Notes: generated by a model not told the origin, from the sequence alone. A stretch of 49,142 nt of DNA from Clostridia bacterium (GCA_045535635.1 JAZSLZ010000040.1:1-49142), one strand, 5' to 3'; positions 7,007-28,754 are shown, counted from the first letter of the stretch. Made by a program: numbers and translations.

Positions 7007-7058
7007 AAAGCATTTTCTGTTATAATTAAAATACAAATAATATTTAATGGAGAATTCT

Positions 7059-10000
7059 ATGAAAAAATATTTATTATCACTTGTTTTCATATTTTTTATA
7101 TTGTGTACATTTAATGTTTCAGCGTACAATCTTGATGTTTTAAAAACCGAAGGAATTGTTGTAGGAGACGAAGGCGGTTTCAGAGAAAGTGACACAGTAA
7201 CACGCGGTGAGTTTATCAAAATGATAAACCGTACCTTTGCCATTCCTAAGGACCATACATCTGTACATTTACCTGATGTTTCTCCTAGCAAATGGTACTA
7301 CGGTGACATTCTTACCGCAGTTAATTACGGTTATGTCAAAGGTGATGAACAGGGAAATATGAACCCTGAAAGCAACATCACAAGACAGGAGGCTTTAACA
7401 ATTGCTGCAAGGCTCACAGGCTACAGGGATACATTTGTCACTTCTTTTGCAGATGACGGATATATTGCTTTATGGGCAAAAGGACCTGCCGTTTCACTTG
7501 CAGAAATGGGATTGCTTCAGCATGATGATTTCTTGCGTCCAGAGGAGCTTATGACCAGAAAGGAATGTTTCGACCTTTTTTACAATGTTTTAAACCAAAG
7601 ATTCTCATCAGGTGACGGAAGCACCCTTTCTCCATTTGTTATAAAATACCCTTATCAGCTTTCAAACATAAGATTGTACCCTGACAAAAACTACACTCTT
7701 GCAGGAGATATAGATTTTGGTCTTTACAATTTATCTTATATACCAGCAGACTACTTCAATGGCAAACTGGCAGGTCACGGACACAAAATCATCAGACTTT
7801 ATTCAACTCAGACATCAACAAACGCATTATTTAAAGCTACAGGTAAAAATGCAGTAATATCAGGTATAACCCTTGTTTGTCCTGAGCATATTTTTGCTTT
7901 TGCAAATGAAAACAACGGCACTATTTCCGACTGTCTTAACACAAGCTTTTTTAAAAATAAAGAGCTTCATAAATTCTCAAGCTACAAAGGTGCAATTGCA
8001 GATATAAACAATGGTGTTATCAAAAACTGTGGAAATTCGTCTTTCATTTCCATAAGAGATGGTGATAAGGCTTCAGGTGGAATATGCGGACTTAATAACG
8101 GAACTGTAGAAAGCTGTTTCAATCTTGCTAACGGACTTAATTCAAAATGCTTTGCAATTGCAGGAGAAAACAAAGGCACATTGAAAAATTGCTACAGCAC
8201 CTCTTCTGCAGAAATCACAGATAAATCTGCCGAGAATTGCTACTATACAGGAAGCAAAGTTTTAAAGCAGGGGAAATTCACTTCAAAGGAAAACCTCTCT
8301 TCGCTTCTTCCTGATTTTATAAATTCTGAAGGAACCTTTATTCCAAAAACTCTTTGCTTTACAGGAAACGAAAACTTTACTGATTTTTCAGGCGGAGAAG
8401 GAAGCGCTTCAAATCCGTACATTATTTCAAATCAGGAAGATTTCAACAACATAAATAACTATCCTGAAAGCTATTTCAGACAAGAGGGAGATCTTGTTTT
8501 TACCAAGCCTGTTAAAATAGAAGAATTCAATGGTTATTACTATGGTAACGGATACACACTTTCCCACCTTTCTTTAACAGAAACCGAGGGAAACTGTTCT
8601 ATTTTTGAAACAAACAGCGGTACGCTTGAAAACATAAGAATTTATGATGGATTTTTCTTTTCTTATGATAATTCTGCTTCCCTTTGTCACACAAACAAAG
8701 GTAATATTGTTAACTGTTCTTCATACTCTTCCGTTACAGGTAAAAACTGCGGTGGCCTTGTTTATCTTAACGAAGGAAATATCACAAACAGTTTCTTCGA
8801 GGGTAAAATAAGTGCTTCCTCAGGAAGTGGTCTGGTTTATACAAATACAGGAAGCATTTCAAATTCCTACGCAAATGCTCATATTTTTGGCAAACAAAGT
8901 TCTTCTTTGGTGTATAACAACAACGGAGAAATAGCAATGTGTCTGGCGACAGGAACATTAAATACTTCCGAAACTGCAGGTGTTGTTTTTAACAACACAG
9001 GGGAAATAAACAGATGTGTTTACAACTCTGCCAAAAACAGTACACTTATAAACACAGGTACTGCAGATGCTTTGTATAAAGACAATATTAATATAATTCC
9101 TTTTTTCAATAATGACATTTGGACTTCAGGAAAAACATCTTTAACATTAAAAAGAAACCCATCGTTTATACAGAACACAAAAGAAAACACATATTCATTT
9201 GCAGGTGGAGACGGTACTGCTTCAAATCCGTACATCATCATTACTCCTATGCATTTAAACAACATAAGATATTTCCCTTACGCAAGTTTTATTCTGAGCA
9301 ACGACCTTGATATGTCTATTACAGATTTTAAAGCAATCAAGGAGTTTAATGGTAATTTCAACGGAAATTCAAAAAAGATTTCAGGTCTTAAAAACACCCT
9401 GTTTATTATAAATAACGGAACTGTTCAGAATCTTGAACTGAAGAAATCCCATTCTTTAACAAATACAAATAACGGAACTTTAATTTCATGCAAAAACAGT
9501 TCAGATATTAAAGGTGAAACAGCTTATGCCTTTGCAAATGAAAATAACGGCAACATTATTCAGTGTCTTAACAACGGTAAAATGAGTGGCAACAAGGTTG
9601 CCTCTATAGCCCTTTTAAACAACGGCAGGATAATCGACTGTATAAATACTGCTCCTTTAATGGGAACAGGTGAAAACAGCACAATTTTCGGTATAGCATC
9701 AGGCGGCAGTATTTTAAGAGGTTACAACACAGGAGATATGTATTTTGAAAGCTCCTTTGGTTCAATCTATCCGATTTCTGATGCATCTTATATCGACGCT
9801 TATTATCTTAACAAATATCAAAGCCATCAACAGGGCGGTCTTAACTACGATGCCTTCAACAAAAAGCTTTTCAAAGATGATATATACACTTCAACAAGAA
9901 TGGGATACCCTGTTTTTGAAAGTGTTGATTTTAGCGACGTTGTATTTCCGTCAGGTTATGCTTCAGGTAACGGAACTGAGGAATCTCCATATATTATAAG

Positions 10001-12023
10001 CTCTATGAAGGAACTTTTTGATATAAGAATGTATTCCTCTGCACACTTTATGTTTATCAGAGATATAGATCTTTCTGCAGAATATTCTTCGCCTTCTATT
10101 TACAACAACGCAGGTCGTGGATTTACACCCATAAACAGTTTTGATGGTGTATTGGACGGAAACTCCTCAACCATCTACGCTCTTAACATTTTGTATTCTG
10201 CCAAAGGCGACGCTGCCTTTATAATCCAGAATAACGGAAATATTAAAAACCTTACAATTGCAGAATCAAAAATTGAAGGTCTTTCAAAGGCTGCCGCACT
10301 TGCTGTTTCAAACAAAGGTAAAATAGAAAATATTACATTAAGAGGCTCAAGAGTTGGTGCAAAAAGCGGTGTTTCTGCCGCATTTGTCTGCACAAACGAA
10401 GAAAGAGGCCAGATTTTAAAATGTGTTAATCTTTCCGATATTTTTGCATCGGATCTTGCAGGTGGAATTTGTGTTAATAATTACAATTACATTGCTGATT
10501 GCACAAATAACGGCGGAATTATTGCAAACAGTATCCAAAGCAATGCAATAGCAGGTGGTATATGTGCGGCAAACCATGCAACCGTGGCAAAATGCGTAAA
10601 CAACGGTAAAATTTTCTCATATTCTGATAAACAAACCGCAATAGCAGGAGGCATTATCGGAAGTGAATATCAGATAACCTCAAACTGTTATAACACAGGC
10701 AGTCTTACTGTTAAGTCTCCTGATAAATCATATAGCGGTGGTATTGCAGGTTATTGTTCAGATGCAAACATTTCAAGTTGCTACAATCTTGGTTACATTA
10801 CTGCAACAAGCAATCTTCAGTATGTTGGTTCTATTGCAGGAGGAGGACTTTCAGGAAAAATTTCAACCTGTTACTTTGATCACACACTCCCTGCAGCTGC
10901 TGGTGAACAATGCATAAGAATAAATGGCGTATTTCCTGTTTCACCTGAAGAATTAACAAACCTTTCTTCTGTTTCAGGACTTAACAAAAAATTATGGGAA
11001 ACACAAAACACAACCTACCCATTCCCACAACTTAAAACAAACCCACATAAAACCCTGCCTGACATAGAAAACATAAGAGATTTCGCAGGTGGAAACGGAA
11101 CACTTGAAAATCCGTACAAAATTATAACAAAAGAGCATTTAAACAATGTGAGAAAGCATCTTGGTTCTTCTTTTTCTCTCCTTTCTGATATTGATATGAC
11201 AGGAGAAGTCTTTTTGCCTATAGGTGATGAAATTTTCAGTTTCTTTGGTACTTTCCTTGGAAACGGACATACAATTTCAAATTTAAGTACAACTTCAGGC
11301 TTGTTCAGAGAAAACCATGGTGAAATCTATAATCTTAAGCTTGAAAACATTTCACTTTCTGCAGAAACTTCAGGTGCCATTGCCTCTGTAAACACAGGTC
11401 TTATCTACAAGTGCAGTAACACCTCATCAAGTGCCATCTCTGCACAGACTGCAGTAAGCGGTGGCATAGCAGGAATAAATAACCATAGCGGTATGATTGT
11501 TTCATCATACACAAACGGCTTCTTCGGCGGAAATGCACACTCTGCAGTTGCAGGAGGTCTTTGCGGATATAATTATGGACTTATTGCCGGTTCGTACAAC
11601 GGAATGAATCTTAATTTCTCAATTGCTTCTTCTGCACTCTTAGGCGGTATCTGCGGATACAACAGCGGAACTATTTCAGACTGCATTAACTACTGTGACC
11701 TTGGAGTTTTCAATTCCCTTTCAGCCGAAAGTAACATAGGCGGAATTGCATCAGGCAGTAACGGAAGCATAGTAAACTGTATTTCTTCTGCACAGACTCT
11801 TACAGGCAAGAAAACAGGTGCAATATGTGCTACTCTTCTTAACAAAAACATCTATAATTGTTATTATTTAAACAGCGTTAACGAGCCTTTTGCTCTTGAA
11901 AATGCAACAGGCGGCGATAACTATCAGCTTGGCTCTCCTGATTTTTATTCAGGACTGGACACTTCTACAATGTGGTATTTTAAAGAAGGCTACTTCCCCA
12001 CTTTGATAGAGACAATGTTTTAG
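7059..12023 (+). CDS. Large secreted cell-surface protein: signal peptide, three SLH domains, five repeated modules with GLUG-type (GGI[AC]G) beta-helix-like repeats
   Basis: ORF 7047-12023. I prefer the ATG at 7059 because GGAGA lies inside the first codons, giving MKKYLLSLVFIFFILCTFNVSA|YN, a classic signal peptide. SLH-like segments: TRGEFIKMINRTF, ITRQEALTIAARL, MTRKECFDLFYNVL. Repeated GxGxxxxPYxI module heads and many NNGxIxxCxN / GGI(A/C)G rungs. Confidence 0.85.
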   Translation: MKKYLLSLVFIFFILCTFNVSAYNLDVLKTEGIVVGDEGGFRESDTVTRGEFIKMINRTFAIPKDHTSVHLPDVSPSKWYYGDILTAVNYGYVKGDEQGNMNPESNITRQEALTIAARLTGYRDTFVTSFADDGYIALWAKGPAVSLAEMGLLQHDDFLRPEELMTRKECFDLFYNVLNQRFSSGDGSTLSPFVIKYPYQLSNIRLYPDKNYTLAGDIDFGLYNLSYIPADYFNGKLAGHGHKIIRLYSTQTSTNALFKATGKNAVISGITLVCPEHIFAFANENNGTISDCLNTSFFKNKELHKFSSYKGAIADINNGVIKNCGNSSFISIRDGDKASGGICGLNNGTVESCFNLANGLNSKCFAIAGENKGTLKNCYSTSSAEITDKSAENCYYTGSKVLKQGKFTSKENLSSLLPDFINSEGTFIPKTLCFTGNENFTDFSGGEGSASNPYIISNQEDFNNINNYPESYFRQEGDLVFTKPVKIEEFNGYYYGNGYTLSHLSLTETEGNCSIFETNSGTLENIRIYDGFFFSYDNSASLCHTNKGNIVNCSSYSSVTGKNCGGLVYLNEGNITNSFFEGKISASSGSGLVYTNTGSISNSYANAHIFGKQSSSLVYNNNGEIAMCLATGTLNTSETAGVVFNNTGEINRCVYNSAKNSTLINTGTADALYKDNINIIPFFNNDIWTSGKTSLTLKRNPSFIQNTKENTYSFAGGDGTASNPYIIITPMHLNNIRYFPYASFILSNDLDMSITDFKAIKEFNGNFNGNSKKISGLKNTLFIINNGTVQNLELKKSHSLTNTNNGTLISCKNSSDIKGETAYAFANENNGNIIQCLNNGKMSGNKVASIALLNNGRIIDCINTAPLMGTGENSTIFGIASGGSILRGYNTGDMYFESSFGSIYPISDASYIDAYYLNKYQSHQQGGLNYDAFNKKLFKDDIYTSTRMGYPVFESVDFSDVVFPSGYASGNGTEESPYIISSMKELFDIRMYSSAHFMFIRDIDLSAEYSSPSIYNNAGRGFTPINSFDGVLDGNSSTIYALNILYSAKGDAAFIIQNNGNIKNLTIAESKIEGLSKAAALAVSNKGKIENITLRGSRVGAKSGVSAAFVCTNEERGQILKCVNLSDIFASDLAGGICVNNYNYIADCTNNGGIIANSIQSNAIAGGICAANHATVAKCVNNGKIFSYSDKQTAIAGGIIGSEYQITSNCYNTGSLTVKSPDKSYSGGIAGYCSDANISSCYNLGYITATSNLQYVGSIAGGGLSGKISTCYFDHTLPAAAGEQCIRINGVFPVSPEELTNLSSVSGLNKKLWETQNTTYPFPQLKTNPHKTLPDIENIRDFAGGNGTLENPYKIITKEHLNNVRKHLGSSFSLLSDIDMTGEVFLPIGDEIFSFFGTFLGNGHTISNLSTTSGLFRENHGEIYNLKLENISLSAETSGAIASVNTGLIYKCSNTSSSAISAQTAVSGGIAGINNHSGMIVSSYTNGFFGGNAHSAVAGGLCGYNYGLIAGSYNGMNLNFSIASSALLGGICGYNSGTISDCINYCDLGVFNSLSAESNIGGIASGSNGSIVNCISSAQTLTGKKTGAICATLLNKNIYNCYYLNSVNEPFALENATGGDNYQLGSPDFYSGLDTSTMWYFKEGYFPTLIETMF

Positions 12024-12080
12024 TGGACATATTTAAAATTTTATGTTAAAATAAAGTATCTTTAGATATTGAGAGGTTTT

Positions 12081-12494
12081 ATGAATTACAATGCTTTAAA
12101 TGCCGAGGACACAATAGCTCTCGGTGAAGAATTCGGCAAAACATTAAAAAGCGGCGATATAGTTTGCTTAACAGGCGATTTAGGTGCAGGAAAAACCACA
12201 TTCACAAAAGGTATTGCAAAAGCACTTGAATGTATTTACGAGCCTGTCAGTCCAACCTTTAATATAGTAAACGAATATCCTGGGAATTTGCCTGTTTATC
12301 ATTTTGATTTATATCGTCTGCAATCTGTTGAGGACTTATATTCTATTGATATAGACAATTATCTCTTTTCAGGCGGTATATGTATAATAGAATGGCCTGA
12401 AATTGCATATCCGCTTCTTGAAGAATATAAATCGGTTAATATTAAGTACGACAAAAACAGCAGAATTATTGAAATAAACGAGGTTAAAAAATGA
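12081..12494 (+). CDS. tsaE: tRNA t6A37 biosynthesis ATPase TsaE
   Basis: Walker A GDLGAGKTTFTKGI. The ATG at 12081 is preferred over the track's upstream start at 12069 because the RBS GAGAGG sits 4 nt upstream. Confidence 0.9.
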   Translation: MNYNALNAEDTIALGEEFGKTLKSGDIVCLTGDLGAGKTTFTKGIAKALECIYEPVSPTFNIVNEYPGNLPVYHFDLYRLQSVEDLYSIDIDNYLFSGGICIIEWPEIAYPLLEEYKSVNIKYDKNSRIIEINEVKK

Positions 12495-13165
12495 GAACTT
12501 TAGCAACAGATACTTCTTCCAAAGCCGCAACAGTTGCGGTTACACAGGATGGTAGTCTTTCAGGTGTTTTTACCTTAAATCTTGCCACCCCGCATTCACA
12601 GATAAGTATGGTGCTTATTGAAGAGCTTTTAAACAAGCTTGGTCTTACCGCTAAAGATATTGACCTTTTTGCGGCGGCACAAGGCCCGGGTTCTTTTACA
12701 GGACTTCGTGTTGGTATTGCAACTATCAAAGGTCTTGCAGACGGAGCAAACAAACCTGCCGTAGGTGTTTCAACACTAGAAGCAATGGCTTTTAAGTTCA
12801 AGCACTTTGATGGATATGTTTGTCCTGTTTTAGATGCAAGAAGAAATCAGGTTTACTATGCTCTTTATAAAAACGGTGAAGAGGTTCTTCCACCTGATAT
12901 GTGCGATATTAATATTCTTTTATCAAAGCTTTCCTGTTTTGACAAAAGAATAATATTTACAGGCGACTGTCTTGACAAGCACAAAGATCTTATTAAACAA
13001 ACTCTTAACGAAAACGTGGTATTCCCTGCAGATATATACAACACAACTGATGCTGCCGCAGTGGCATACCTTGCAGAAAAATTATACTTAAATAAACAAA
13101 ACAAACCTATTGCTCCAGATTATTTAGTTAAAGCCTATGTGGATCAACAGGAAGGAAAGGAATAA
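12491..13165 (+). CDS. tsaB: tRNA t6A37 biosynthesis protein TsaB (YeaZ)
   Basis: 224 aa, inactive Kae1/Gcp-like ASKHA fold (LAIDTS-like TLATDTSS, GPGSFTGLRVG). ATGA overlap with tsaE. Confidence 0.9.
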   Translation: MRTLATDTSSKAATVAVTQDGSLSGVFTLNLATPHSQISMVLIEELLNKLGLTAKDIDLFAAAQGPGSFTGLRVGIATIKGLADGANKPAVGVSTLEAMAFKFKHFDGYVCPVLDARRNQVYYALYKNGEEVLPPDMCDINILLSKLSCFDKRIIFTGDCLDKHKDLIKQTLNENVVFPADIYNTTDAAAVAYLAEKLYLNKQNKPIAPDYLVKAYVDQQEGKE

Positions 13166-13170
13166 AAATT

Positions 13171-13608
13171 ATGATAGCTATCGGATCAGATCACGGCGGT
13201 TATGAGCTTAAACTTGCCATTATCAAACATCTTGAAGGAAAAGGACTTGATGTTAAAGACTTTGGTTGTTACTCCAAAGACAGTGTAAACTACCCTGACA
13301 TCGCATCTGCAGTTTGCCCTGCAATTACAAGCGGCGAAGCAGAATTCGGCATTTTGATTTGCGGAACAGGTATCGGAATTTCTATTGCCGCAAACAAACA
13401 CAAAGGCATCCGTGCAGCTCTTTGCTCCGATGCATACAGTGCAGAAAAAACAAAACAACACAACAACGCAAATGTTATCTGTATGGGTGGCAGAGTGCTT
13501 GGTGAAGACCTTGCCATTTCAATTCTTGAAGCATATATGAATGCAGAGTTTGAAGGCGGTCGTCATCAGGCGAGAATTGACCTTATTACAGATATTGAAA
13601 ATAACTAA
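13171..13608 (+). CDS. rpiB: Ribose-5-phosphate isomerase B (RpiB/LacA/LacB family)
   Basis: 145 aa. MIAIGSDHGGYELK and ICGTGIGISIAANK motifs. Confidence 0.92.
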   Translation: MIAIGSDHGGYELKLAIIKHLEGKGLDVKDFGCYSKDSVNYPDIASAVCPAITSGEAEFGILICGTGIGISIAANKHKGIRAALCSDAYSAEKTKQHNNANVICMGGRVLGEDLAISILEAYMNAEFEGGRHQARIDLITDIENN

Positions 13609-13618
13609 AGGGAGGCTT

Positions 13619-14110
13619 ATGGTTTTGAGAACAGATAAAATAAACTACTACCTCGACATCGCAGAAACAGTACTTGAAAGAGGCACATGCCTCAGAAGAA
13701 ATTTTGGTGCAATCATTGTTAAAAACGATGAAATCGTTTCAACAGGCTATGTTGGTGCACCAAGACAGAGACAAAATTGCTCTGATATGGGCTTTTGCTT
13801 AAGAGAAAAATTAAATGTTCCAAGAGGCACAAGATACGAACTTTGCAGAAGTGTTCACGCTGAAGCAAATGCAATCATCTCTGCTTCAAGAAACGAAATG
13901 ATTGGTGCAACTCTTTATCTTTGCGGTAAAGAAAAAACAACAGGCGAGATTGTTGAAAACGCAATGCCTTGTTCTATGTGCAAAAGAATGATTATAAATG
14001 CAGGTATCAACGATGTTTACATCAGAGACGATAAAGAAAATTACAGACACTATATGGTATCTGAATGGATTGAAAATGACGATTCTCTCGGCATAAAGGA
14101 AGATTATTAA
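13619..14110 (+). CDS. dCMP deaminase (ComEB-type cytidine/deoxycytidylate deaminase)
   Basis: Zinc motifs HAEANAI and PCSMCKRMI. The ATG at 13619 is preferred (RBS AGGGAGG 5 nt upstream). The longer track ORF from 13541 overlaps rpiB. Confidence 0.88.
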   Translation: MVLRTDKINYYLDIAETVLERGTCLRRNFGAIIVKNDEIVSTGYVGAPRQRQNCSDMGFCLREKLNVPRGTRYELCRSVHAEANAIISASRNEMIGATLYLCGKEKTTGEIVENAMPCSMCKRMIINAGINDVYIRDDKENYRHYMVSEWIENDDSLGIKEDY

Positions 14111-15114
14111 TGACATCTCTTGTTAAACCAACAACAGAAAATTTAAGCAAAGCCGCCAAAATTATAAACGATGGCGGTCTTGTTGCGTTCCCTACAGAAA
14201 CGGTTTACGGCCTTGGTGCAGACGGACTTAATGAGACGGCCGTTAAGAAAATCTATGTTGCAAAAGGCAGACCTTCAGACAATCCTCTTATTTTACATAT
14301 TCAGGATAAAAAAGAGGTTCTTCCCCTTGTGCTTGAAATAAACGAAACTGCAAAGAAGCTTATGGACACCTTCTGGCCCGGACCTATGACACTTGTTTTT
14401 AAAAAGAGTGCTATTGTGCCATCGGTCATTTCAGGCGGTCTTGACACAGTTGCAATAAGACTTCCTGAAAATGAAATTGCAAGAGAGCTTATTGCTCTTG
14501 CAAAGAAACCCATTGCCGCACCAAGTGCTAACACATCAGGAAAGCCAAGCCCCACAAAGGCAAGTCATGTTTTTGACGACTTAAATAATAAAATAGATAT
14601 GATTATTGATGGTGGAAGCTGTAATATAGGTCTTGAGTCAACAGTTATAGATGTAACCACTCTCTCCCCTGTTATTTTAAGACCGGGCGGAGTTACTTTT
14701 GAGGATATTTTTGAGCTTTTCCCTGATGTTTCTTACGACAAGCATTTAACACTTGATGTAATCACAGACACAGTTAAACCTAAAAGTCCCGGTATGAAAT
14801 ATAAACACTACGCCCCAAAGGGTGAGCTTTATATTTTAGACGGAAATCTTGACGAAATCAAAAGCTACATAACCGAAAATACAGACGAAAAAACTGCAGT
14901 TTTCACTTATGACAAAATAGAATTTGATTTACCTTATGTTAAATCATTAGGCGATGCAAATTCAGGCGGTAAACTGTTCTTTGATTTACTCCGTGAATGT
15001 GACGACAATGGCATAACAAAGATTTTCGCACTTATGCCAGATAAAAAAGGCGTTGGCTTTGCTCTTTACAACAGAATGTTTAAGGCAGCAGGAGGAAGAA
15101 TAATAAAATTATGA
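14110..15114 (+). CDS. tsaC: L-threonylcarbamoyladenylate synthase, long Sua5/YwlC form
   Basis: 334 aa. YrdC domain (FPTETVYGLGAD, KGRPSDNPLILH) plus a Sua5 C-terminal domain. TAATG overlap with the upstream gene. Confidence 0.9.
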   Translation: MTSLVKPTTENLSKAAKIINDGGLVAFPTETVYGLGADGLNETAVKKIYVAKGRPSDNPLILHIQDKKEVLPLVLEINETAKKLMDTFWPGPMTLVFKKSAIVPSVISGGLDTVAIRLPENEIARELIALAKKPIAAPSANTSGKPSPTKASHVFDDLNNKIDMIIDGGSCNIGLESTVIDVTTLSPVILRPGGVTFEDIFELFPDVSYDKHLTLDVITDTVKPKSPGMKYKHYAPKGELYILDGNLDEIKSYITENTDEKTAVFTYDKIEFDLPYVKSLGDANSGGKLFFDLLRECDDNGITKIFALMPDKKGVGFALYNRMFKAAGGRIIKL

Positions 15115-15560
15115 TTACCATTGAATATTTAAAACCTGAGCATCTGCCTTTCATTGAAGAAATAGACAACACCTGCCCTCACAAGCCCTGGTCATCTGTT
15201 GAAGAATTCAAAAAAGAGCTTGAAAATCCTGTTGCAAGTTATTTTGTTGCACTTATAGATGGTAAGCCTGTTGGCTATGGTGGTTACTGGTGGGTTATGT
15301 TTGAAGCAGAAATCACCAACATCGCAACTCATAAAGACTACAGAAAAATGGGAATAGCTACAAAAATATTAGAAAAAATGATCGAAAAATGTGCAAACAC
15401 AAGCACTTCCCTTTTGCATCTTGAAGTCAGAGAAAGCAACGAAGGTGCTATAAATCTCTACAAAAAAATGGGATTTGTTCAGGACGGCTTCAGAAAAAAT
15501 TATTACAAAAATAACGAAAATGCAATCCTTATGACAAAGGAGATAGAATTAATTGATTAA
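15111..15560 (+). CDS. rimI: Ribosomal-protein-alanine N-acetyltransferase RimI (GNAT)
   Basis: 149 aa GNAT ([15 protein letters not shown]). Canonical position between tsaB and tsaD. ATGA overlap. Confidence 0.85.
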
Positions 15561-16563
15561 AATACTTGCTATAGAAAGCTCCTGCGACGAAACTGCCGCA
15601 TCTGTTGTTGAAGACGGATGCAAAGTTTTATCAAATGTTATAAATTCGCAGGCAAACTTACATAAAAAATACGGCGGAGTTGTACCTGAAGTCGCATCAA
15701 GACTTCATATTGAAGCAATTGACTCTGTTGTTAAACAGGCACTTATCGATGCTTCCTGCACCATTGACGATATTGATGCAATTGCAGTTACCTATGCACC
15801 TGGTCTTGTTGGTTCACTTCTTGTTGGCCTTTCTTATGCAAAAGCTTATGCATTTGCCACAGGAAAACCTTTAATCGGTGTGCACCACATTGAAGGACAT
15901 ATCTGTGCCAACTACCTTATGGGACTTACCCCTCCTTTTATGTGCCTTGTTGCATCAGGAGGTCACAGCCATATTATATATGTTGAAGATTACAGAAAAT
16001 ACGAAGTTTTAGGCAAAACAAGAGACGATGCCGCAGGTGAAGCCTATGACAAGGTTGCAAGAGTTGTAGGCCTTTCCTACCCAGGCGGTCCAAGTATTGA
16101 CAAGGCGGCAAATCTGGGAACACCAAACATACCTATAACAAAGCCTAAATTCCACGAAGAAACCCTTGATTTTTCTTTCAGTGGAATAAAAACTGCAATT
16201 ATAAACTATCATCACAATATGGAGCAAAAAGGCGAAGAAATTAACGTTAATGACCTTTGTGCAAGTTTCCAAAGTACAGTTGTTGATATTTTAACAGCAA
16301 ACACCTTCAAAGCGGCAGAAATGAAAGGCGTTAAAAAGGTTTCTATTGCAGGTGGTGTTGCAGCAAATTCAGGACTTCGTGAAAGTTTTAAAAAAGAGGC
16401 AGAAAAGCGTGGTATGGAATTTATCTGTCCTGATTTTGTTTACTGCACAGATAATGCGGCTATGATTGGTGCCGCGGCGTACCACTACTATCTAAACAAC
16501 GAATTTTCAGGTATGGACTTAAATGCAATTCCATATCTTCCAATAGATTATAGTAAAAACTAA
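15553..16563 (+). CDS. tsaD: tRNA N6-adenosine threonylcarbamoyltransferase TsaD (Gcp/Kae1)
   Basis: 336 aa. [16 protein letters not shown]-terminus and the HHIEGH metal motif. TTG start behind AAGGAGA. Confidence 0.93.
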
Positions 16564-16575
16564 AGGAGTGATAAT

Positions 16576-18561
16576 ATGTCAAAAGTGTTACTTGATTACA
16601 TACTCAAAAAAGAACATCACAAATTCAGAATTGATGCTCCTGAACTTGCAAAGGAGTATAAAGAAAAAGGACTTTCTCCTATTGAGAGAATGACAGACAG
16701 ATTTGAAAGACTTTGTAAAATGGAAACACCTCTTTTTCTTCCTGATGAAAAAATCTGTTTTGTTAGAACAGTTAAAAATATTCCTGATTGCTTCACAGAA
16801 GATGAATGGGCAGAATTAAAAGATAAATATTTTATTCACGAGCTTGGTTACCTTTCAAACCTTTCTCCTGATTATGAGGATATTATTAAGTGCGGACTTC
16901 TTGCAAAAAGAGAAACTGCAAATGAATACCAAAAGCGCTCTATTGATGCTATTTTAGGTCTTGTTGAAAGATATAAAGAAGAAGCAATCAAAGAGGGTAA
17001 AACAGAAATTGCAAAGGTTTTAGACAGAGTTCCTGCTTATGGTGCAACAAGCTTTATTGAAGCACTTCAGTCTTTCAGAATTGTTCATTTTGCGCTCTGG
17101 CTTGAAGGAAACTATCATAACACAGTTGGCAGACTTGACAAATATATGTATCCATACCTTAAGGCAGATATGGAAAAAGGTCTTTATACAGAAGAAACAG
17201 CCTTAGAGCTTGTGGAAGATTTCTTCCTTTCATTTAACAAGGACTCAGACCTTTATGTTGGCGTTCAACAGGGCGATAACGGTCAAAGCTTAATGCTTGG
17301 CGGTGTTGACAAAGACGGAAATGATGTGTTTAATCTTCTTTCAAAGCTTTGTCTTAAAGCAAGTAATAACCTTCTTTTAATCGATCCTAAAATCAATTTA
17401 AGGGTTAATAAAAACACACCAATTGAAACATACATCCTTGGCAGTGAGCTTACAAAAGCAGGTCTTGGTTTCCCACAGTATTCAAATGACGATGTTGTAA
17501 TTGACGCTTTAGTTAAACTTGGATATGACAAAGAGGACGCTTGTGAATATGTTACTGCAGCTTGTTGGGAATTTATTGTTCCAAAGGTTGGTGCTGATGT
17601 GGCAAACATAGGTGCTTTAAACTTCCCTAAAGTAGTTGACAATGCTCTTCATAATCACCTTATATCATCAGAAACTTATGAAGACTTTGCGAAAAAAGTT
17701 GAAAACGAAATAAAAGCAGAATGTGATATTATCTGCTCTAATTTAAAAAATTTATGGTTTGTTCCGTCTCCTTTTATGTCAGTTATGTGTAACAATGAAA
17801 CTATCTGGGACGGTGGAAAATACAATAATTTCGGTATTCACGGAACAGGCGTTGCAACAGGTGCAGACTCACTTGCAGTTATTAAAAAATATGTCTTTGA
17901 AGAAAAGAGCATTTCAAAAGAAGAACTTATTAACGCAGTTGACACAAACTTTGAAAACGCACCTGAGCTTCTTCACAAGCTTCGCTATGAAGCACCTAAA
18001 ATGGGTAATAACATTGACTTTGTTGATGATATTGCTGTATGGCTTTTAGATACCTTTGCAGCTTCACTTGAAGGCAGAAAGAACTGCAGAGGCGGAATTT
18101 ACAGAGCAGGAACAGGTTCTGCTATGTTCTACCTTTGGCATGCAAACGAAATCGGTGCATCTCCTGACGGCAGACTTAAAAAAGAGCCATTTGGCACAAA
18201 CTTCTCTGCAAGTATTTTTGCAGACATCAAAGGTCCTCTTTCAGTTATTAAATCATTCTCAAAGCCTCACTTTGAAAATGCAATAAACGGCGGTCCTTTA
18301 ACACTTGAATTCCATAATTCAATGTTCAAAGACGAAGGCAGCGTTGAAAAGGTTGCTATGCTCGTTAAATCATTTGTTGAGCTTGGCGGACATCAGCTTC
18401 AGCTTAACGCAGTTAACCTTGAAACCTTAAAGGATGCACAGGCACACCCTGAAAAATATCAGCAGTTAGTTGTAAGAATCTGGGGTTGGAGTGCGTACTT
18501 CGTTGAGCTTGACAAAGAATATCAGGATCATGTTATGTTAAGACAGGAATACACATTATGA
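16576..18561 (+). CDS. Glycyl radical enzyme, short (661 aa) PFL2/dehydratase-like family, substrate unknown
   Basis: C-terminal glycyl-radical signature VVRIWGWSAYFVELDKEYQDHVMLR (Gly637, nt 18484-18486). Thiyl loop TAACWEF (Cys330, nt 17563-17565; Glu332). ASPDGR motif. RBS AAGGAG, only 12 nt after the tsaD stop. Confidence 0.85.
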   Translation: MSKVLLDYILKKEHHKFRIDAPELAKEYKEKGLSPIERMTDRFERLCKMETPLFLPDEKICFVRTVKNIPDCFTEDEWAELKDKYFIHELGYLSNLSPDYEDIIKCGLLAKRETANEYQKRSIDAILGLVERYKEEAIKEGKTEIAKVLDRVPAYGATSFIEALQSFRIVHFALWLEGNYHNTVGRLDKYMYPYLKADMEKGLYTEETALELVEDFFLSFNKDSDLYVGVQQGDNGQSLMLGGVDKDGNDVFNLLSKLCLKASNNLLLIDPKINLRVNKNTPIETYILGSELTKAGLGFPQYSNDDVVIDALVKLGYDKEDACEYVTAACWEFIVPKVGADVANIGALNFPKVVDNALHNHLISSETYEDFAKKVENEIKAECDIICSNLKNLWFVPSPFMSVMCNNETIWDGGKYNNFGIHGTGVATGADSLAVIKKYVFEEKSISKEELINAVDTNFENAPELLHKLRYEAPKMGNNIDFVDDIAVWLLDTFAASLEGRKNCRGGIYRAGTGSAMFYLWHANEIGASPDGRLKKEPFGTNFSASIFADIKGPLSVIKSFSKPHFENAINGGPLTLEFHNSMFKDEGSVEKVAMLVKSFVELGGHQLQLNAVNLETLKDAQAHPEKYQQLVVRIWGWSAYFVELDKEYQDHVMLRQEYTL

Positions 18562-19373
18562 CAGGCACAGTATTCGATATAAAAGAATTTTCCCTTCACG
18601 ACGGACCTGGTGGCAGAGTTACAGTTTTTCTTAAAGGTTGCCCTTTAAGATGTAAATGGTGTCACAATCCTGAGGGACTAAAAACAGAAAAACAACTTTT
18701 AGTAAAGACCGCACAATGTACAAACTGCGGTCTTTGCAAAAAGCCATGCGACCATCCTGAGTGTCAGCCTTTCGGCAGATGCATAAAGGTATGCCCTAAA
18801 AATTTAGTCCGTATATGCGGAACTGAATATAAAGCAAAAGACCTTGCAGATAAAATACTTGAATATTCAGACTTTTTTGAATTAAATAATGGCGGTGTTA
18901 CCTTTTCAGGCGGCGAACCTCTTCTTCAACATAAATTTTTAAAAGAAGTTTGCTCACATCTTAACGGTGTTCATAAAGCCATACAAACAAGTGGATATGC
19001 CGATGAAGAAATTTTCAAAAACACAATTAAATGCTTTGACTATGTTATGATGGACATTAAAATAGCAGACAGAGAAAAGCACAAGGAATATACAGGTGTT
19101 TATAACGATGTTATTTTAAATAACTTTGAGTTTCTTAAAAACAGCGGTATTCCCTATATCATAAGAGTTCCACTTATTCCTGATATTACAGATACCGAAG
19201 AAAACTTAAAGGGCATATCAGAAATAGTAGGTTCTTCACCTGTTGAGCTTTTGTCTTACAATCAAATGGCAGGTGCAAAATACGAAAGTGTGGGAATGGA
19301 ATACACCCTCACCAAAGAAAAAAACAAAGAGCCTGATTTAACTATATTCAAAAACGCAATACTTTCAAAATAA
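18558..19373 (+). CDS. Glycyl-radical enzyme activating protein (radical SAM, with ferredoxin-like Cys insert)
   Basis: 271 aa. CPLRCKWCHNPE (CX3CX2C) plus CTNCGLCKKPC and CQPFGRCIKVCP motifs. ATGA overlap with the GRE gene. Confidence 0.9.
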   Translation: MTGTVFDIKEFSLHDGPGGRVTVFLKGCPLRCKWCHNPEGLKTEKQLLVKTAQCTNCGLCKKPCDHPECQPFGRCIKVCPKNLVRICGTEYKAKDLADKILEYSDFFELNNGGVTFSGGEPLLQHKFLKEVCSHLNGVHKAIQTSGYADEEIFKNTIKCFDYVMMDIKIADREKHKEYTGVYNDVILNNFEFLKNSGIPYIIRVPLIPDITDTEENLKGISEIVGSSPVELLSYNQMAGAKYESVGMEYTLTKEKNKEPDLTIFKNAILSK

Positions 19374-19398
19374 GACTTTGCCATATTGCAAAGTCTTA
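19371..19398. terminator. Bidirectional hairpin terminator between the activase gene and the convergent small ORF
   Basis: TAAGACTTTGC / GCAAAGTCTTA, 11-bp stem, 6-nt loop. Includes the activase stop codon. Confidence 0.6.
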
Positions 19399-19403
19399 TT
19401 AAT

Positions 19404-24033: not shown

Positions 24034-26115
24034 ATGAAACCATTTCCAACCAAAAGAACCTCAACTACACAAAATTTTATGTTTCCATCAATAGGGGAAG
24101 TTGTATATGAAACTCCCCCTACTTTTATTTGGATACCTGTAGAGGGTGCAGAAAAATACATTTTGTCTGTATATGACGAAAACAAATCTCTTATTGAAGA
24201 AATTTCTACTTGTAAAATATATGCCAATATTTCAAAGCCTCTTGAAAGTGGAAAATATTTCTGGAAAATTGAAACAAACACTCACGCAAGTGATTTTATG
24301 GAATTTTACATATCAGAAAAAGCTATACATTTCAAAAGACCTGACGCTAAAACGTTGTTTGAAAATTATCCAAGCGAAAGACCTGCATATCTATTCTGCA
24401 AAGACCAGATATGCACCCTCAAAGAAACAAAAGCATTTGAACTTAATGTTTTGAAAAACAATGTTAAGGTTGCATTAGACAGGGAACTTCCTACCATGCC
24501 TGTTTATCATATTGACGGCAAAAGGGCTGAATACCGACAGTATTTTGCTGACCACCGAACATATAATGACAGAGATATGGTTGCCTGTGCACTTATGTTC
24601 GCACTTACCGATGACCAAATTGCCGGTAATAAAGCAAAAGAATTGATGATGAGGGTTTGTGGTATGAATCCTTTAGGACCTTGTGCCATTGATGGGGACT
24701 TTGAAGATGAAATAGGCATAAGTAATATACGATGTATTCCACCTGTATTTGATATGATTTTCCCTCTTTTAAATGAAAAAGAGCAAAAATATGTAGCACA
24801 AACCATTGCAGTTTACGCACAGCAGTGCGAAAATAAACTTAAACTCATCAATTATGAACAAAACCCATCAAATTCACATGTGGGCAGAATACCTGCCTAT
24901 CTTGGCGGTGCATCACTTGTTTTGAAAGGCACAGGTGTTTGCGATGATGAAACACTGATACGATGGCTAAAATACGCTCTTGATATATACTGTGGAATTT
25001 TTCCATACTATGGAGGAAATGATGGAAGCTGGGCAGAGGGTACTTTTTATTCTACCAGTTACACTAAATGGTATCTACCCTTCTTTTCAGCTGTAGAAAG
25101 ATTTTCAGACGGCAGTCTGTTTAACAGACCATTTTACCACAGATACACAAATTTTTTAATACATTTTTGCAATAAGGATTATGAAATTCATCCATTTTGT
25201 GATGGTTACTGGTGCGACAGTGACTCTGAGGAATGGCCAGGCTTCTTTGCACAAAACCCTTATGCTGTATATGCAGAAAAATTTGGTCCTGAACTTGCAA
25301 AAATCAGGAGTGCAAAAGCATCAGAACAAAAGTTCTATATGCTGCATCTTCTTGATTTATTTTTACCAGAGCTTAAAAAAGAGGAAAAAACATTAACAAA
25401 AGAACCTGAAAATGTTGAAGTTTTTCCTGACGGCGGATTTATAGCTATGCACACAGATTTAACAGATGATAATGACATCTGTGTATTTGCAAGAGCGTCA
25501 AGATTTTCTTACGATAGTCACAGACATGCAGACCAAGGCTCTTTTGCCTTGTTTTCAAAAGGTGTTGCTCTTATAACCCCATCTGGATATTTTGGAAGAG
25601 GGTATGGAACAAATCACCATTTTAAATGGATGAAAAGCACCAAAGCGCACAACTCACTGTTATTTAACGGAATTGACCAGAGAGTAGTAAACCCATTGGA
25701 TGCCACAGGTAAAATAATATCTGTTGACAAAGGCAACAAGCACTGTATTCTTGATATGAGCAGTGCATATCCAAACATTAGTTCGTGGCAGAGAGAATTG
25801 ATTTTAAAAGACAAGCTTTTAACTGTAATTGACACAGTTCATTCTGACGAAAACATAGAAATTACTTACCCACTTCACACTTTATCTCTTCCTTATGAAA
25901 AAGATGGTAAGGTTTATGTAGAAAGAAAAGGCGAAAAACTTGAAATAGAAGCACAAGATATTTCTTTGGTGGAAATAACAGATAAATATGATACCGATCT
26001 TAATGACGGTGTTCCAAAAGAATATCACGTAACAATGCCACAACAATACCACATTTACTTTAAATCCAAAAAATCAAAAAATCATAAAATAGTTGTGAAA
26101 TATAAAATAGACTAA
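24034..26115 (+). CDS. DUF4962 / heparinase II/III-like family protein (putative poly- or oligosaccharide lyase), no signal peptide
   Basis: 693 aa. N-terminal PPTFIWIPVEGAEKYILSV (DUF4962-like) and C-terminal SHRHADQGSFALFSKG, typical of the heparinase II/III family. Starts 2 nt after the acetyltransferase stop. Confidence 0.7.
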   Translation: MKPFPTKRTSTTQNFMFPSIGEVVYETPPTFIWIPVEGAEKYILSVYDENKSLIEEISTCKIYANISKPLESGKYFWKIETNTHASDFMEFYISEKAIHFKRPDAKTLFENYPSERPAYLFCKDQICTLKETKAFELNVLKNNVKVALDRELPTMPVYHIDGKRAEYRQYFADHRTYNDRDMVACALMFALTDDQIAGNKAKELMMRVCGMNPLGPCAIDGDFEDEIGISNIRCIPPVFDMIFPLLNEKEQKYVAQTIAVYAQQCENKLKLINYEQNPSNSHVGRIPAYLGGASLVLKGTGVCDDETLIRWLKYALDIYCGIFPYYGGNDGSWAEGTFYSTSYTKWYLPFFSAVERFSDGSLFNRPFYHRYTNFLIHFCNKDYEIHPFCDGYWCDSDSEEWPGFFAQNPYAVYAEKFGPELAKIRSAKASEQKFYMLHLLDLFLPELKKEEKTLTKEPENVEVFPDGGFIAMHTDLTDDNDICVFARASRFSYDSHRHADQGSFALFSKGVALITPSGYFGRGYGTNHHFKWMKSTKAHNSLLFNGIDQRVVNPLDATGKIISVDKGNKHCILDMSSAYPNISSWQRELILKDKLLTVIDTVHSDENIEITYPLHTLSLPYEKDGKVYVERKGEKLEIEAQDISLVEITDKYDTDLNDGVPKEYHVTMPQQYHIYFKSKKSKNHKIVVKYKID

Positions 26116-27818: not shown

Positions 27819-28754
27819 TTATTTTAATTTTATTGCTTCTTTAACCTTTTCTGCAATATATTCAGGTGTTATGTTATAAAGCTTGAAAAGCTCTGCAGGT
27901 TTTCCTGATGTACCGAATTTATCCTGAACACCAACTCTGAGTACAGGCACAGGAGCTTCTTCACAAACAACCTCTGCTACTGCACTTCCAAGACCGCCGT
28001 AAATGTTATGCTCTTCAACAGTTACGATTGCACCTGTTTCTTTAGCAGCTTTAACAATAATATCTCTGTCTATAGGCTTAATTGTATGTATATCAACAAC
28101 TCTTGCTGAAATTCCTTCTTCTTTAAGCATTTCTGCAGCTTTAAGTGCAAATTCAAGAACGATACCTGTTGCAACGATTGTCGCATCGCTTCCTTCTTTA
28201 ATTTCAACACCTTTACCAAGCTCAAACTTAAAGTCATCACTATGTATCTGCTCTGTTGCAAGTCTGCAGAATCTTAAATATACAGGTCCATTATGTTCAA
28301 GCGCCGCTTTAACAGCCTGTTTTGCTTCAATAGCATCACAAGGGTTAATAACAACCATACCCGGAATTGTTCTCATTAAGCTTATATCTTCAATACACTG
28401 ATGTGTTGCACCGTCCTCACCAACAGAAATACCGCCGTGAGTACCAACAACCTTAACATTTAATTTTGGGTAACAAACAGAGTTTCTTACCTGTTCATAG
28501 GCTCTTCCTGATGAAAACATTGCAAATGATGCCGCAAATACAGGAATACCGCAAGTTGCAATACCTGCCGCAGTTGAAATCATATTTCCCTCTGCAATAC
28601 CTGTATCTATAAATCTTTCAGGATATGCTTTTTTAAATATAACGGTTTTTGTTGCTTCTGCAAGGTCTGCATCCATAACAACAAAGTCATGACTTTCCGC
28701 AAGTTCTACCAAAGCTTTACCAAAAGCTTCTCTTGTAGCCATTTTTTCACTCAC
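27819..28754 (-). CDS. Transketolase, C-terminal (pyrimidine-binding) subunit
   Basis: 311 aa, split-transketolase C-terminal half (GIAEGNMISTAAG, EDGATHQ). Confidence 0.9.
   Translation of the reverse strand: MSEKMATREAFGKALVELAESHDFVVMDADLAEATKTVIFKKAYPERFIDTGIAEGNMISTAAGIATCGIPVFAASFAMFSSGRAYEQVRNSVCYPKLNVKVVGTHGGISVGEDGATHQCIEDISLMRTIPGMVVINPCDAIEAKQAVKAALEHNGPVYLRFCRLATEQIHSDDFKFELGKGVEIKEGSDATIVATGIVLEFALKAAEMLKEEGISARVVDIHTIKPIDRDIIVKAAKETGAIVTVEEHNIYGGLGSAVAEVVCEEAPVPVLRVGVQDKFGTSGKPAELFKLYNITPEYIAEKVKEAIKLK

Follow-up and report, generated by a model that had tools for sequence, protein, structure and literature searches.

A compact glycyl radical enzyme of a Clostridia bacterium belongs to an uncharacterised clade that recurs in carbohydrate-related gene neighbourhoods

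The window analysed here, the whole 49,142-nt stretch of DNA from a Clostridia bacterium (GCA_045535635.1 JAZSLZ010000040.1:1-49142), carries a gene for a glycyl radical enzyme (GRE) of 661 amino acids (aa), followed by the gene for its radical S-adenosylmethionine (SAM) activase. With moderate confidence, we read these two genes as an intact and functional system in which a radical is relayed from activase to enzyme, a glutamate acts as the base in the cleavage of a C-O or other C-X bond, and the substrate is derived from a carbohydrate, in a member of a compact and uncharacterised clade. Judged by its sequence, the enzyme belongs to a large, deep clade of GREs of ~640-710 aa, whose signatures are an A-A-C-W-E Cys loop, an R-[IV]-W-G-W Gly loop and an asparagine in the place of the histidine on strand beta1. 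A first-pass annotation of this DNA had proposed that the gene might represent an uncharacterised GRE subfamily, and both the curated family profiles and a phylogenetic tree support this view. The features of the gene on which the argument rests are the following:

16576-18561, + strand: compact GRE, 661 aa (Pfam, AlphaFold2, Foldseek, dN/dS)
17563-17571, + strand: Cys loop core Cys330-Trp331-Glu332, aligned with C433-V434-E435 of glycerol dehydratase (GDH) and invariant in 75/75 relatives; proposed thiyl radical site and general base
18481-18489, + strand: Gly loop core Trp636-Gly637-Trp638, aligned with GDH A762-G763-Y764 and invariant in 75/75 relatives; proposed glycyl radical site
16858-16860, + strand: codon of Asn95, at the beta1 position (MAFFT alignment), invariant in 75/75 relatives

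The open reading frame (ORF) and its motifs are as that annotation had described them, with Cys330 in TAACWEF and Gly637 in VRIWGWSAYF, 307 residues apart, compared with 330 residues in GDH (C433/G763); in PflB the spacing is 315 (C419/G734). Pfam recognises a PFL-like domain (PF02901, E 5.8e-83, residues 114-514) and a Gly_radical domain (PF01228, E 9.8e-22) and no other family. An AlphaFold2 model built from a 40-sequence alignment was confident throughout, including the N-terminus (mean pLDDT 93.7, pTM 0.92), and in Foldseek it matched the 50 listed GRE chains with a probability of 1.00, a TMq of 0.75-0.88 and an identity of 19-26%, the TM values being 0.79-0.88 for GRE eliminases, isomerases and X-succinate synthases and 0.75-0.81 for decarboxylases. 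The predicted fold is the ten-stranded alpha/beta barrel, and the invariant Cys330, going by its alignment with GDH Cys433, lies on the loop between the two half-barrels. The Gly loop, R634-I-W-G637-W, aligns with R760-V-A-G763-Y of GDH and conforms to the fingerprint R-V-x-G-[FWY], albeit with an unusual Trp at the position before the glycine. Among 75 relatives of 56-96% identity, drawn from 80 genome loci, 178 positions are invariant, including Cys330, Trp331, Glu332, Trp636, Gly637, Trp638 and Asn95. Compared with the three closest relatives (dS 0.5-1.0), the GRE gave dN/dS ratios of 0.05-0.08 and the activase ratios of 0.06-0.10. These low ratios and the invariant residues indicate that both genes are under strong purifying selection.

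The GRE scored below every curated NCBIfam cut-off: 310.9 bits against 678.2 for TIGR01774 (PFL2/glycerol dehydratase), where the match covers profile positions 220-785 only, 297 against 1100 for HypD, 266 against 1000 for HpfG, 263.5 against 1109 for the PflD equivalog NF007437, 250 against 1000 for NF048011 (the comparison with C-S cleaving GREs), 233 against 1050 for CutC and 75.9 against 994 for the pyruvate formate-lyase (PFL) model TIGR01255. Taken together, the HypD, CutC, HpfG/HpsG, HPAD and IAD equivalogs gave 173-297 bits against cut-offs of 1000-1150. In a neighbour-joining tree the enzyme likewise fell inside no characterised family; it was placed inside a clade with CWE and RxWGW loops, sister to a group with CWE and RVWGF, and both were nested in an 'RVWG' lineage apart from E. 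coli PflD, YbiW and the 780-810-aa enzymes. The motifs and lengths of the clade members agree with this topology. Membership in any of the characterised GRE families is ruled out by the NCBIfam cut-offs, by the identity to solved GREs, which is 21-26% in structural alignment, and by the tree.

The short length is shared by the whole group. The best 120 matches in a collection of 5.8 billion proteins were all 623-669 aa long and all carried AACWE and WGWS, and the short length is therefore a trait of the family; where a source name was given for these matches, it was 'pyruvate formate-lyase', from Clostridia metagenome-assembled genomes (MAGs). A search without word index over 50%-identity representatives returned 6696 relatives. 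Among the best 150 of these, 31 had both CWE and RxWGW (24 of them full length, 641-709 aa) and 18 had CWE with RxWG[FMY] (662-747 aa), while the median length of the canonical relatives with R-x-(A/S/T/C/G)-G-[YFWM] was 792 aa. Almost all of the records examined are metagenome-assembled or uncultured, and none of these is named as a cultured isolate.

According to a June 2026 review of the superfamily, the characterised eliminases are GD, PD, HpfG, HypD, HpyG, HpzG, CutC, IslA/IseG and HpsG, the characterised isomerases are HplG, YbiW and PflD, and whole GRE clades are still without functional validation; no compact sugar-linked GRE appears in it (PMC13450708). Our literature searches returned no characterised short or sugar-acting GRE beyond PflD/YbiW and no GRE in nucleotide-sugar or O-antigen pathways, and a paper on aminoacyl-radical enzymes does not mention truncated or sugar-linked GREs.

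The alignments also clarify where the residues went. It had been suggested that the 100-150 missing residues are N-terminal, and aligning the enzyme with E. coli PflD and YbiW (NC_000913.3) and canonical representatives shows that most of the loss does lie within the N-terminal third, but in the form of internal deletions rather than a terminal truncation. The extreme N-terminus and an 'ELIVG'-type strand are kept; a deletion in the segment 66-85 accounts for ~62-65 residues and another in the segment 112-142 for ~30, which leaves the N-terminal helical third ~95 residues shorter, and small deletions that follow residues 230, 360, 393 and 406 remove 15-45 more, a figure that varies with the comparator. 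In GREs, the N-terminal helices form the conserved dimer interface (PMC13450708). Every GRE chain matched by Foldseek is 750-870 aa long, and the window GRE is shorter than every solved GRE matched; the E. coli protein YjjI (516 aa) is shorter but scarcely alignable.

The pocket of the enzyme differs from that of GDH at most of the positions compared. The substrate and catalytic residues of GDH (PDB 1r9d) are His164, Ser282, Tyr339, Asp447, Tyr640, Cys433 and Glu435, and in the alignment only the last two of these are kept, as Cys330 and Glu332, along with His281, which corresponds to His181. Ser282 is replaced by Asn182, Asp447 by Asn344, Tyr640 by Gly514, Val434 by Trp331 and Ala762 by Trp636, and the GDH segment G-G-Y-P-M-Y339-Q by the shorter G-D-N-G-Q. 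Asn95 stands where PflD, YbiW and most canonical representatives have the beta1 His (MAFFT), a position which, by way of these homologues, is probably that of His164. In GDH, His164 is the proposed acid, which would donate a proton to the departing hydroxyl; it is named in the review of the superfamily, as is Glu435 (PMC13450708). Further invariant residues specific to the clade are K272 (in DPKINLR), H422, R510 (in R-A/P-G-T-G-S-A) and N571-G-G-P, and position 510 is Arg or Lys across the CWE clades. The remodelled pocket would hence combine Asn95, a Trp beside each radical residue, the GDNGQ loop, Asn344, His422, Arg510 and Gly514. The loss of two Tyr, one to Gly and one to a deletion, and the many Asn, Gln and His suggest that it is larger and more polar. 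As the beta1 His is lost, the leaving group would be one that requires no protonation, or another proton donor would take over.

The Cys-x-Glu arrangement had been taken in the first-pass annotation as the mark of the 1,2-eliminases. The loop is indeed Cys-x-Glu and not the Cys-Cys of pyruvate formate-lyase, but the assignment to 1,2-eliminases goes too far, given that the beta1 His is an Asn, that other pocket positions differ and that Cys-x-Glu is also found in HPAD-type decarboxylases and in isomerases. Eliminases and isomerases among the GREs have the arrangement in common (PMC13450708), and it is therefore no specific mark of the 1,2-eliminases.

The 80 related loci, which came from a scan of species-representative genomes, belong nearly all to uncultured gut or rumen Clostridia (e.g. 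Acutalibacteraceae, Ructibacterium, Ornithomonoglobus, Flemingiibacterium and Faecousia), with goat, sheep, water deer, roe deer, water buffalo, yak, horse and Hadza/Nepali samples named in the record titles. That the substrate cannot be inferred from context, as had been stated, is true for the window; its relatives, however, give a consistent carbohydrate context. A Raffinose_syn/Sip1 (GH36-like) protein, the best PDB match of which is the plant RS6 alkaline alpha-galactosidase/raffinose-synthase homologue 7exf, occurs in 17 of 79 loci and is often directly adjacent. AraC regulators are immediate neighbours in 9-10 loci and LacI regulators in 6-7. GDSL esterases are present in ~10 loci, four of them inserted between GRE and activase, and ABC sugar permeases or binding proteins in 7 or more of the 80. 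In our judgement, a Sip1-like protein in 17/79 loci and sugar-type regulators in ~20% are well above random placement. A pair consisting of a short-chain dehydrogenase/reductase (SDR) and an aldo-keto reductase (AKR) recurs near related GREs, as do HAD phosphatases (the Cof type among them), DUF4867, fucose isomerase (2 loci), FGGY kinases, xylose-isomerase-like TIM barrels and glycosidases of families GH1, GH2, GH3, GH4, GH29, GH31 (2 loci), GH94 and GH127 and a GH136-like protein. Two more distant members of the clade show the pattern again: P0125 (47% identity) lies in the order sugar ABC transporter (Peripla_BP_4, ABC_tran, two BPD_transp_2)-activase-GRE-TIM-YjbQ-SIS-FAD oxidoreductases-AraA, and P0279 (from the cluster of P0133, 46% identity) in the order AraC, then activase-GRE-MalK-like ATPase. 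A scan of second-shell neighbours showed no single dominant pathway.

PflD and YbiW (8id0, 8id7, 8yjo) are among the closest known systems and have a similar fold (TMq 0.83-0.88) and the same CxE loop. They are the only characterised sugar-acting GREs and convert 1,5-anhydromannitol-6-P and 1,5-anhydroglucitol-6-P to 1-deoxyfructose-6-P (PMC13450708). Gene types seen beside them recur around some relatives of the window GRE, namely a Cof-type HAD phosphatase (compare ybiV) in 4/80 loci, an aldolase in 3/80 and sugar uptake genes; all three are absent from the window, and the aldolase of the relatives is of class II, a different family from the fsaA product encoded beside ybiW. The window GRE differs from PflD/YbiW in its separate clade, its Asn for the beta1 His, its relatives' ABC transporters in place of a phosphotransferase system (PTS) and a length shorter by 100-150 residues. 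YjjI, for which the E. coli record reads 'DUF3029 domain-containing' and whose function is unknown, is also short and paired with a ferredoxin-insert activase, YjjW. It aligns poorly, however, and has neither CWE nor RxWGW, while the window GRE shows only the PFL-like and Gly_radical domains in Pfam.

In the mechanism that we propose, the activase, a radical SAM enzyme with a CX3CX2C motif and a seven-Cys auxiliary insert, would abstract a hydrogen from Gly637, and the glycyl radical stored there would generate a thiyl radical on Cys330. The substrate would then lose a hydrogen at a carbinol carbon to the thiyl radical and the proton of its hydroxyl to Glu332, and the ketyl radical so formed would expel the neighbouring C-O (or other C-X) substituent. 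The outcome would be a dehydration, a lyase reaction or a ring-opening isomerisation of the kind known from eliminase and isomerase GREs. The substrate is most likely a carbohydrate-derived hydroxylated molecule, for example a monosaccharide, an anhydro- or deoxy-sugar, a polyol or a phosphorylated or glycosylated derivative of these. As a more tentative proposal, to which we give about one chance in three, the compact clade could catalyse an undescribed GRE reaction, such as the cleavage or rearrangement of a free or glycosidic sugar or of a sulfo- or phospho-sugar without a His acid, using a minimal scaffold that lacks part of the N-terminal dimerisation region and that was recruited to glycan-catabolic and surface-glycan loci of uncultured gut Clostridia, Victivallales and Planctomycetes.

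Several points weigh against assigning the window GRE to carbohydrate-directed eliminase or isomerase chemistry in a clade of its own. The phylogenetic placement comes from one neighbour-joining tree, rooted on E. coli PflB, without bootstrap support, the neighbour frequencies are raw locus counts without a random-locus baseline, and the pocket assignments rest on sequence alignment to GDH, PflD, YbiW and canonical representatives. Contexts are heterogeneous, and many loci have housekeeping neighbours only (gyrAB, metG, tatD, radA, clpX). A minority of the relatives are found in glycan-biosynthesis clusters (L004, 241-15430; L085, 1-17289), which are not catabolic. Neither the sequence nor the loci point to one specific substrate, and because the beta1 His, the proposed acid in GDH, is an Asn, a simple dehydration like that of GDH or HypD may not apply. 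Lastly, transcription of the gene together with tsaD, from the tRNA-modification gene array upstream, is probable, judging from spacing only.

The nearest solved structures would point to a dehydratase of small diols. GDH of Clostridium butyricum (DhaB1, 1r8w/1r9d) is the best match of the window GRE both in sequence (E 8e-75) and in fold (TMq 0.87), propanediol dehydratases also being among the best matches, and GDH and the propanediol dehydratases 5i2g and 9rco have in common with it the Cys-x-Glu loop, the glycyl radical domain and an adjacent ferredoxin-insert activase. The enzyme could accordingly resemble a B12-independent glycerol or 1,2-propanediol dehydratase, with propanediol supplied from fucose and glycerol from plant galactolipids, the head groups of which would be freed by the GDSL esterase, alpha-galactosidase-like and beta-glycosidase neighbours, and with the aldehyde reduced by the SDR and AKR. 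The recurrent GDSL esterases, Sip1/GH36-like proteins, GH1/GH2 enzymes and SDR-AKR pair would suit such a pathway, as would the fucose isomerase adjoining in 2 loci and a distant member beside TIM and FAD oxidoreductases (DAO, Fer2_BFD, Fer4), which we read as resembling anaerobic glycerol-3-phosphate dehydrogenase. We nevertheless regard it as unlikely, since the window GRE is ~125 residues shorter than GDH, 24% identical to it in the structural alignment and flanked by no microcompartment or dha-type genes, and has a Trp beside both radical residues. Moreover, the GDH pocket is not kept (Asn95, Asn182, the deleted Tyr339 segment, Asn344, Gly514, Trp331), the TIGR01774 score and the separate clade set the enzyme apart, and its identity to diol dehydratases is no higher than to CutC, HypD or PflD. 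Among the 25 most frequent neighbour families, there is no microcompartment, glycerol kinase/facilitator or iron-dependent alcohol dehydrogenase (Fe-ADH) family. Because the pocket of glycerol dehydratase is not conserved, the route from galactolipid to glycerol is kept as a rival only. A role in biosynthesis rather than catabolism, in which the enzyme would make a rare (e.g. deoxy- or keto-) sugar precursor of a cell-surface glycan, also has a low probability in our view. It draws on the L004 cluster, where a GRE 74% identical to that of the window is found with CapD/Polysacc_synt_2, two GT4 enzymes, a nucleotidyltransferase, an Epimerase/Polysacc_synt_C protein, UDP-GlcNAc 2-epimerase, a HAD protein, its activase, a xylose-isomerase-like TIM barrel and an SLH protein; neighbours across the L004 and L085 surface-polysaccharide clusters include GT2 and GT4 enzymes. 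It also draws on the sister-clade member P0161, on a Planctomycetes-type contig, which has a Wzx-like flippase on one side, UDP-galactopyranose mutase on the other and glycosyltransferases in the vicinity, on P0291, beside GT8 and DUF4422, and on the window itself, where a GT2 enzyme, a hexapeptide transferase and a large protein (1658 aa) with an N-terminus that by eye resembles SLH domains are encoded within 8 kb. Most of the informative contexts, however, are catabolic or inducible (AraC/LacI, glycoside hydrolases, uptake ABC systems), and a LacI repressor and a GH1 enzyme are found at the loci of the closest relatives. The invariance of the pocket residues across catabolic and biosynthetic loci argues for one substrate, and leaves aside which of the two roles is primary.

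It is doubtful, at about one chance in ten, that the enzyme is a lyase for an anionic sugar derivative with a sulfonate, sulfate or phosphate leaving group. Such a leaving group needs no acid catalyst, which would explain the invariant Asn95 on beta1 and the basic residue conserved as Arg or Lys at position 510. The C-S lyase GREs IslA, IseG and HpsG offer a parallel, as they share the CxE loop and a beta1 amide with the window GRE (Gln in IslA, Asn in the window) as well as a conserved basic residue on the strand after the second half-barrel; their arginines hold the sulfonate (PMC13450708). Neighbouring GH31, HAD phosphatases, FGGY kinases, class II aldolase, SIS and TIM proteins fit this proposal, as does DUF4867, a cupin family of unknown function that is tied to aldose/ketose and sulfoquinovose clusters (PMC11968277). 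On the other hand, a match of Arg510 with the sulfonate arginine of IslA/IseG/HpsG would be tentative at residue level (residues 475-555, used as an 81-aa query against the PDB, returned no chains of these enzymes), and the window GRE is 160 residues shorter, with no sulfite-handling genes nearby. GH31 is a rare neighbour, and genes for a sulfite reductase or exporter were not seen. DUF4867 was set aside as a lead to sulfoquinovose, as it occurs mostly in ordinary aldose/ketose clusters (PMC11968277) and supports a sugar context only, and a paper on sulfoquinovose in the rumen names only the known IslAB and HpsGH. A true pyruvate formate-lyase, as the relatives are named in public records and as the PFL-like Pfam domain might suggest, can be given virtually no weight, since the A-C-W-E loop lacks the Cys-Cys pair, the TIGR01255 score is 75.9 against 994 and PflB is the outgroup of the tree.

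A functional tie to the N6-threonylcarbamoyladenosine (t6A) modification of tRNA, or to the rpiB or deaminase gene of that operon, is highly improbable as well. It would rest on the position of the GRE gene directly behind the t6A genes, without a terminator-like site between, and on a neighbourhood shared with the loci L001 and L003. The elements concerned are:

12069-16563, + strand: gene array tsaE, tsaB, rpiB, deaminase-like ORF, tsaC/sua5, rimI, tsaD (NCBIfam)
16564-16575, + strand: tsaD-GRE junction, 12 nt, with an AGGAG ribosome-binding site (RBS); inferred deletion scar (sequence, L001/L003 alignment)

TsaE, TsaB, RpiB, TsaC/Sua5, RimI and TsaD score above their NCBIfam cut-offs, and the deaminase-like ORF matches ComEB below the cut-off. 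The gaps between the genes are at most 12 nt or the genes overlap, and a consensus scan places a promoter-like site at 12024-12052, before tsaE. The first-pass annotation was right that the GRE gene starts 12 nt past tsaD (stop codon TAA at 16561-16563, ATG at 16576), and the consensus scan of the + strand shows no terminator-like site between the two. It had also seen the GRE as coupled to the t6A operon, and as a conserved or functional association this does not stand: in a tblastn search with the window's neighbours, 77 of the 80 related loci had no t6A gene near the GRE, one (L029) had tsaE, tsaB and rpiB ~6 kb upstream and no tsaD, and t6A genes lay upstream of the GRE in only two, L001 and L003 (GREs 96% and 92% identical), both with a lacI gene, a hairpin and a -10-like box in between. 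Together with the alignment of the junction, this rules out t6A linkage as a clue to function, and the coupling would be a by-product of genome architecture with no functional link.

The gene order is tsaD-lacI-GRE-GH1-activase in L001 and tsaD-lacI-GRE-activase in L003, and in L002 the 3' end of a lacI gene lies upstream of the GRE. Between lacI and the GRE (L001, 7925-8000; L003, 6200-6278) we find, in this order, a hairpin with a T-run, a -10-like box TGGTATAAT, the 14-nt near-palindrome CATTAACGATAATG and then an RBS and start like those of the window. The stretch AAGGAGTG(G/A)TAATATG, with RBS and start codon, is shared by the window, L001 and L003, while the hairpin, the box and the near-palindrome are all absent from the window, where the tsaD stop is joined directly to the relatives' GRE RBS. 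Read by eye, and with no tool score, the hairpin is a putative terminator, TGGTATAAT a putative -10 box and CATTAACGATAATG a candidate LacI-type operator. Since this is the layout of L001 and L003, and since LacI-GRE adjacency is also seen at the distant loci L005, L035 and L047, a deletion of lacI, hairpin and -10-like box is the simplest account, and the window appears to have lost ~1 kb. With its regulator and -10-like box gone, the window GRE would be expressed by read-through from the t6A operon. A GH1-family glycosidase gene (417 aa) is inserted between GRE and activase in L001 (10005-11258), and is absent from the window, L002 and L003.

The activase gene is joined to the GRE gene by an ATGA overlap (18558-18561), as had been noted, and comprises the following features, together with a candidate terminator at its end:

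18558-19373, + strand: radical-SAM activase, 271 aa, overlapping the GRE gene (TIGR02494, 258.3 against a cut-off of 174.35)
18639-18662, + strand: CX3CX2C motif (C28, C32, C35) for the SAM-binding [4Fe-4S] cluster, conserved in 68/68 relatives
18717-18794, + strand: compact ferredoxin-like insert CX2CX2CX3C-x4-C-x5-C-x3-CP, seven Cys and His66 (motif reading, relatives)
19369-19400, + strand: terminator-like 13-bp hairpin at the end of the activase gene (consensus scan only; weak T-run)

The description of the protein as a ferredoxin-insert activase with CX2CX2CX3C and CX5CX3CP motifs is supported by the TIGR02494 score, above the cut-off, and by the motif positions. In full, the insert reads C54-x2-C57-x2-C60-x3-C64-x4-C69-x5-C75-x3-C79-P, with a conserved His66 in C64-x-H-x2-C69, and all ten activase Cys are conserved in 65-68 of 68 relatives. 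With 138.1 bits, the protein falls below the cut-off of 250.2 for TIGR04041, the YjjW family, and its insert is compact, with one Cys fewer than in YjjW and in the activase adjacent to P0161 (two CX2CX2CX3CP each). An activase adjoins the GRE in 68 of 79 related loci. Four loci (L007, L015, L069 and L074) have a second, insert-less activase gene directly 3' of the first; an anaerobic ribonucleotide reductase (NRDD) is among the immediate neighbours in 2 loci, and for this reason the second activase may be NrdG-like.

The GRE superfamily, its chemistry and the existence of unannotated clades were already known, and the present system is therefore not categorically new. It is a distinct variant, being shorter than the solved matches, with a Trp at both radical loops and the beta1 His replaced, abundant in uncultured gut anaerobes and linked to carbohydrates, and we see the compact clade as a good target for de-orphanisation rather than a surprise. 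GREs run hard anaerobic reactions that shape gut chemistry, among them those concerned with trimethylamine, p-cresol, skatole, H2S precursors and anhydro-sugar glycolysis, and the clade described here is large, occurs widely in the gut metagenomes of herbivores and humans and has an active site that is visibly altered. Comparison of the relatives narrows the candidate substrates to those derived from carbohydrates and provides handles in the form of a LacI regulator, defined glycosidase and transporter loci and invariant residues. If the substrate were a common plant-derived sugar, the enzyme would represent a new radical route in the fermentation of carbohydrates in the gut. On a practical matter, the compact scaffold may help to define the minimal GRE architecture and its oligomeric state.

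Several relatives of similar length, P0138, P0158, P0174, P0176, P0179 and P0202 (634-681 aa), lack the catalytic Cys, the Gly loop or both, or are without the entire radical domain, and may be non-catalytic paralogues. The canonical-length relative P0243 (789 aa) has RVAAY at the place of the radical Gly, a sequence that fits the recently described alanyl-radical (aminoacyl radical) enzymes. Two Ructibacterium MAGs (L022 and L030; L065 and L066) each carry two compact GRE-activase pairs in different carbohydrate loci, and both copies keep all 178 family-invariant residues, by construction. P0291 (L090, 1-18067), a 688-aa clade member with a short, 198-aa activase, is encoded on a 134-kb contig next to a family-B DNA polymerase, a T4-type RNA ligase, an IF3 homologue, GT8 and DUF4422, and this contig is possibly a large phage or another mobile element.

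Around the window GRE, the genes scanned over ~4.7-32 kb include a class-V aminotransferase, a 2-hydroxyacid dehydrogenase, a DUF1292 protein, a GT2 glycosyltransferase, a hexapeptide transferase, a heparinase II/III-like protein, a pyridoxal phosphate (PLP) enzyme, a split transketolase, a YitT-family protein and CysS, and, in agreement with the first-pass annotation, no transporter, aldehyde dehydrogenase or microcompartment gene. ORFs resembling RadA and CarD were recognised by eye and from tblastn labels only. The heparinase II/III-like gene (693 aa, 24034-26115) and the split transketolase pair (27819-29601), both downstream, are the sole other carbohydrate-related genes found near the GRE. 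The 1658-aa protein (7047-12023), encoded directly 5' of the t6A operon, has no NCBIfam match; it has a signal-peptide-like start, an N-terminus that by eye is SLH-like and long Gly/Asn-rich repeats. Within that operon, rpiB and the deaminase-like gene are embedded between tsaB and tsaC (13171-14110), and the deaminase ORF, counted from its first in-frame start, would share 68 nt with rpiB, its true start being probably near 13619.

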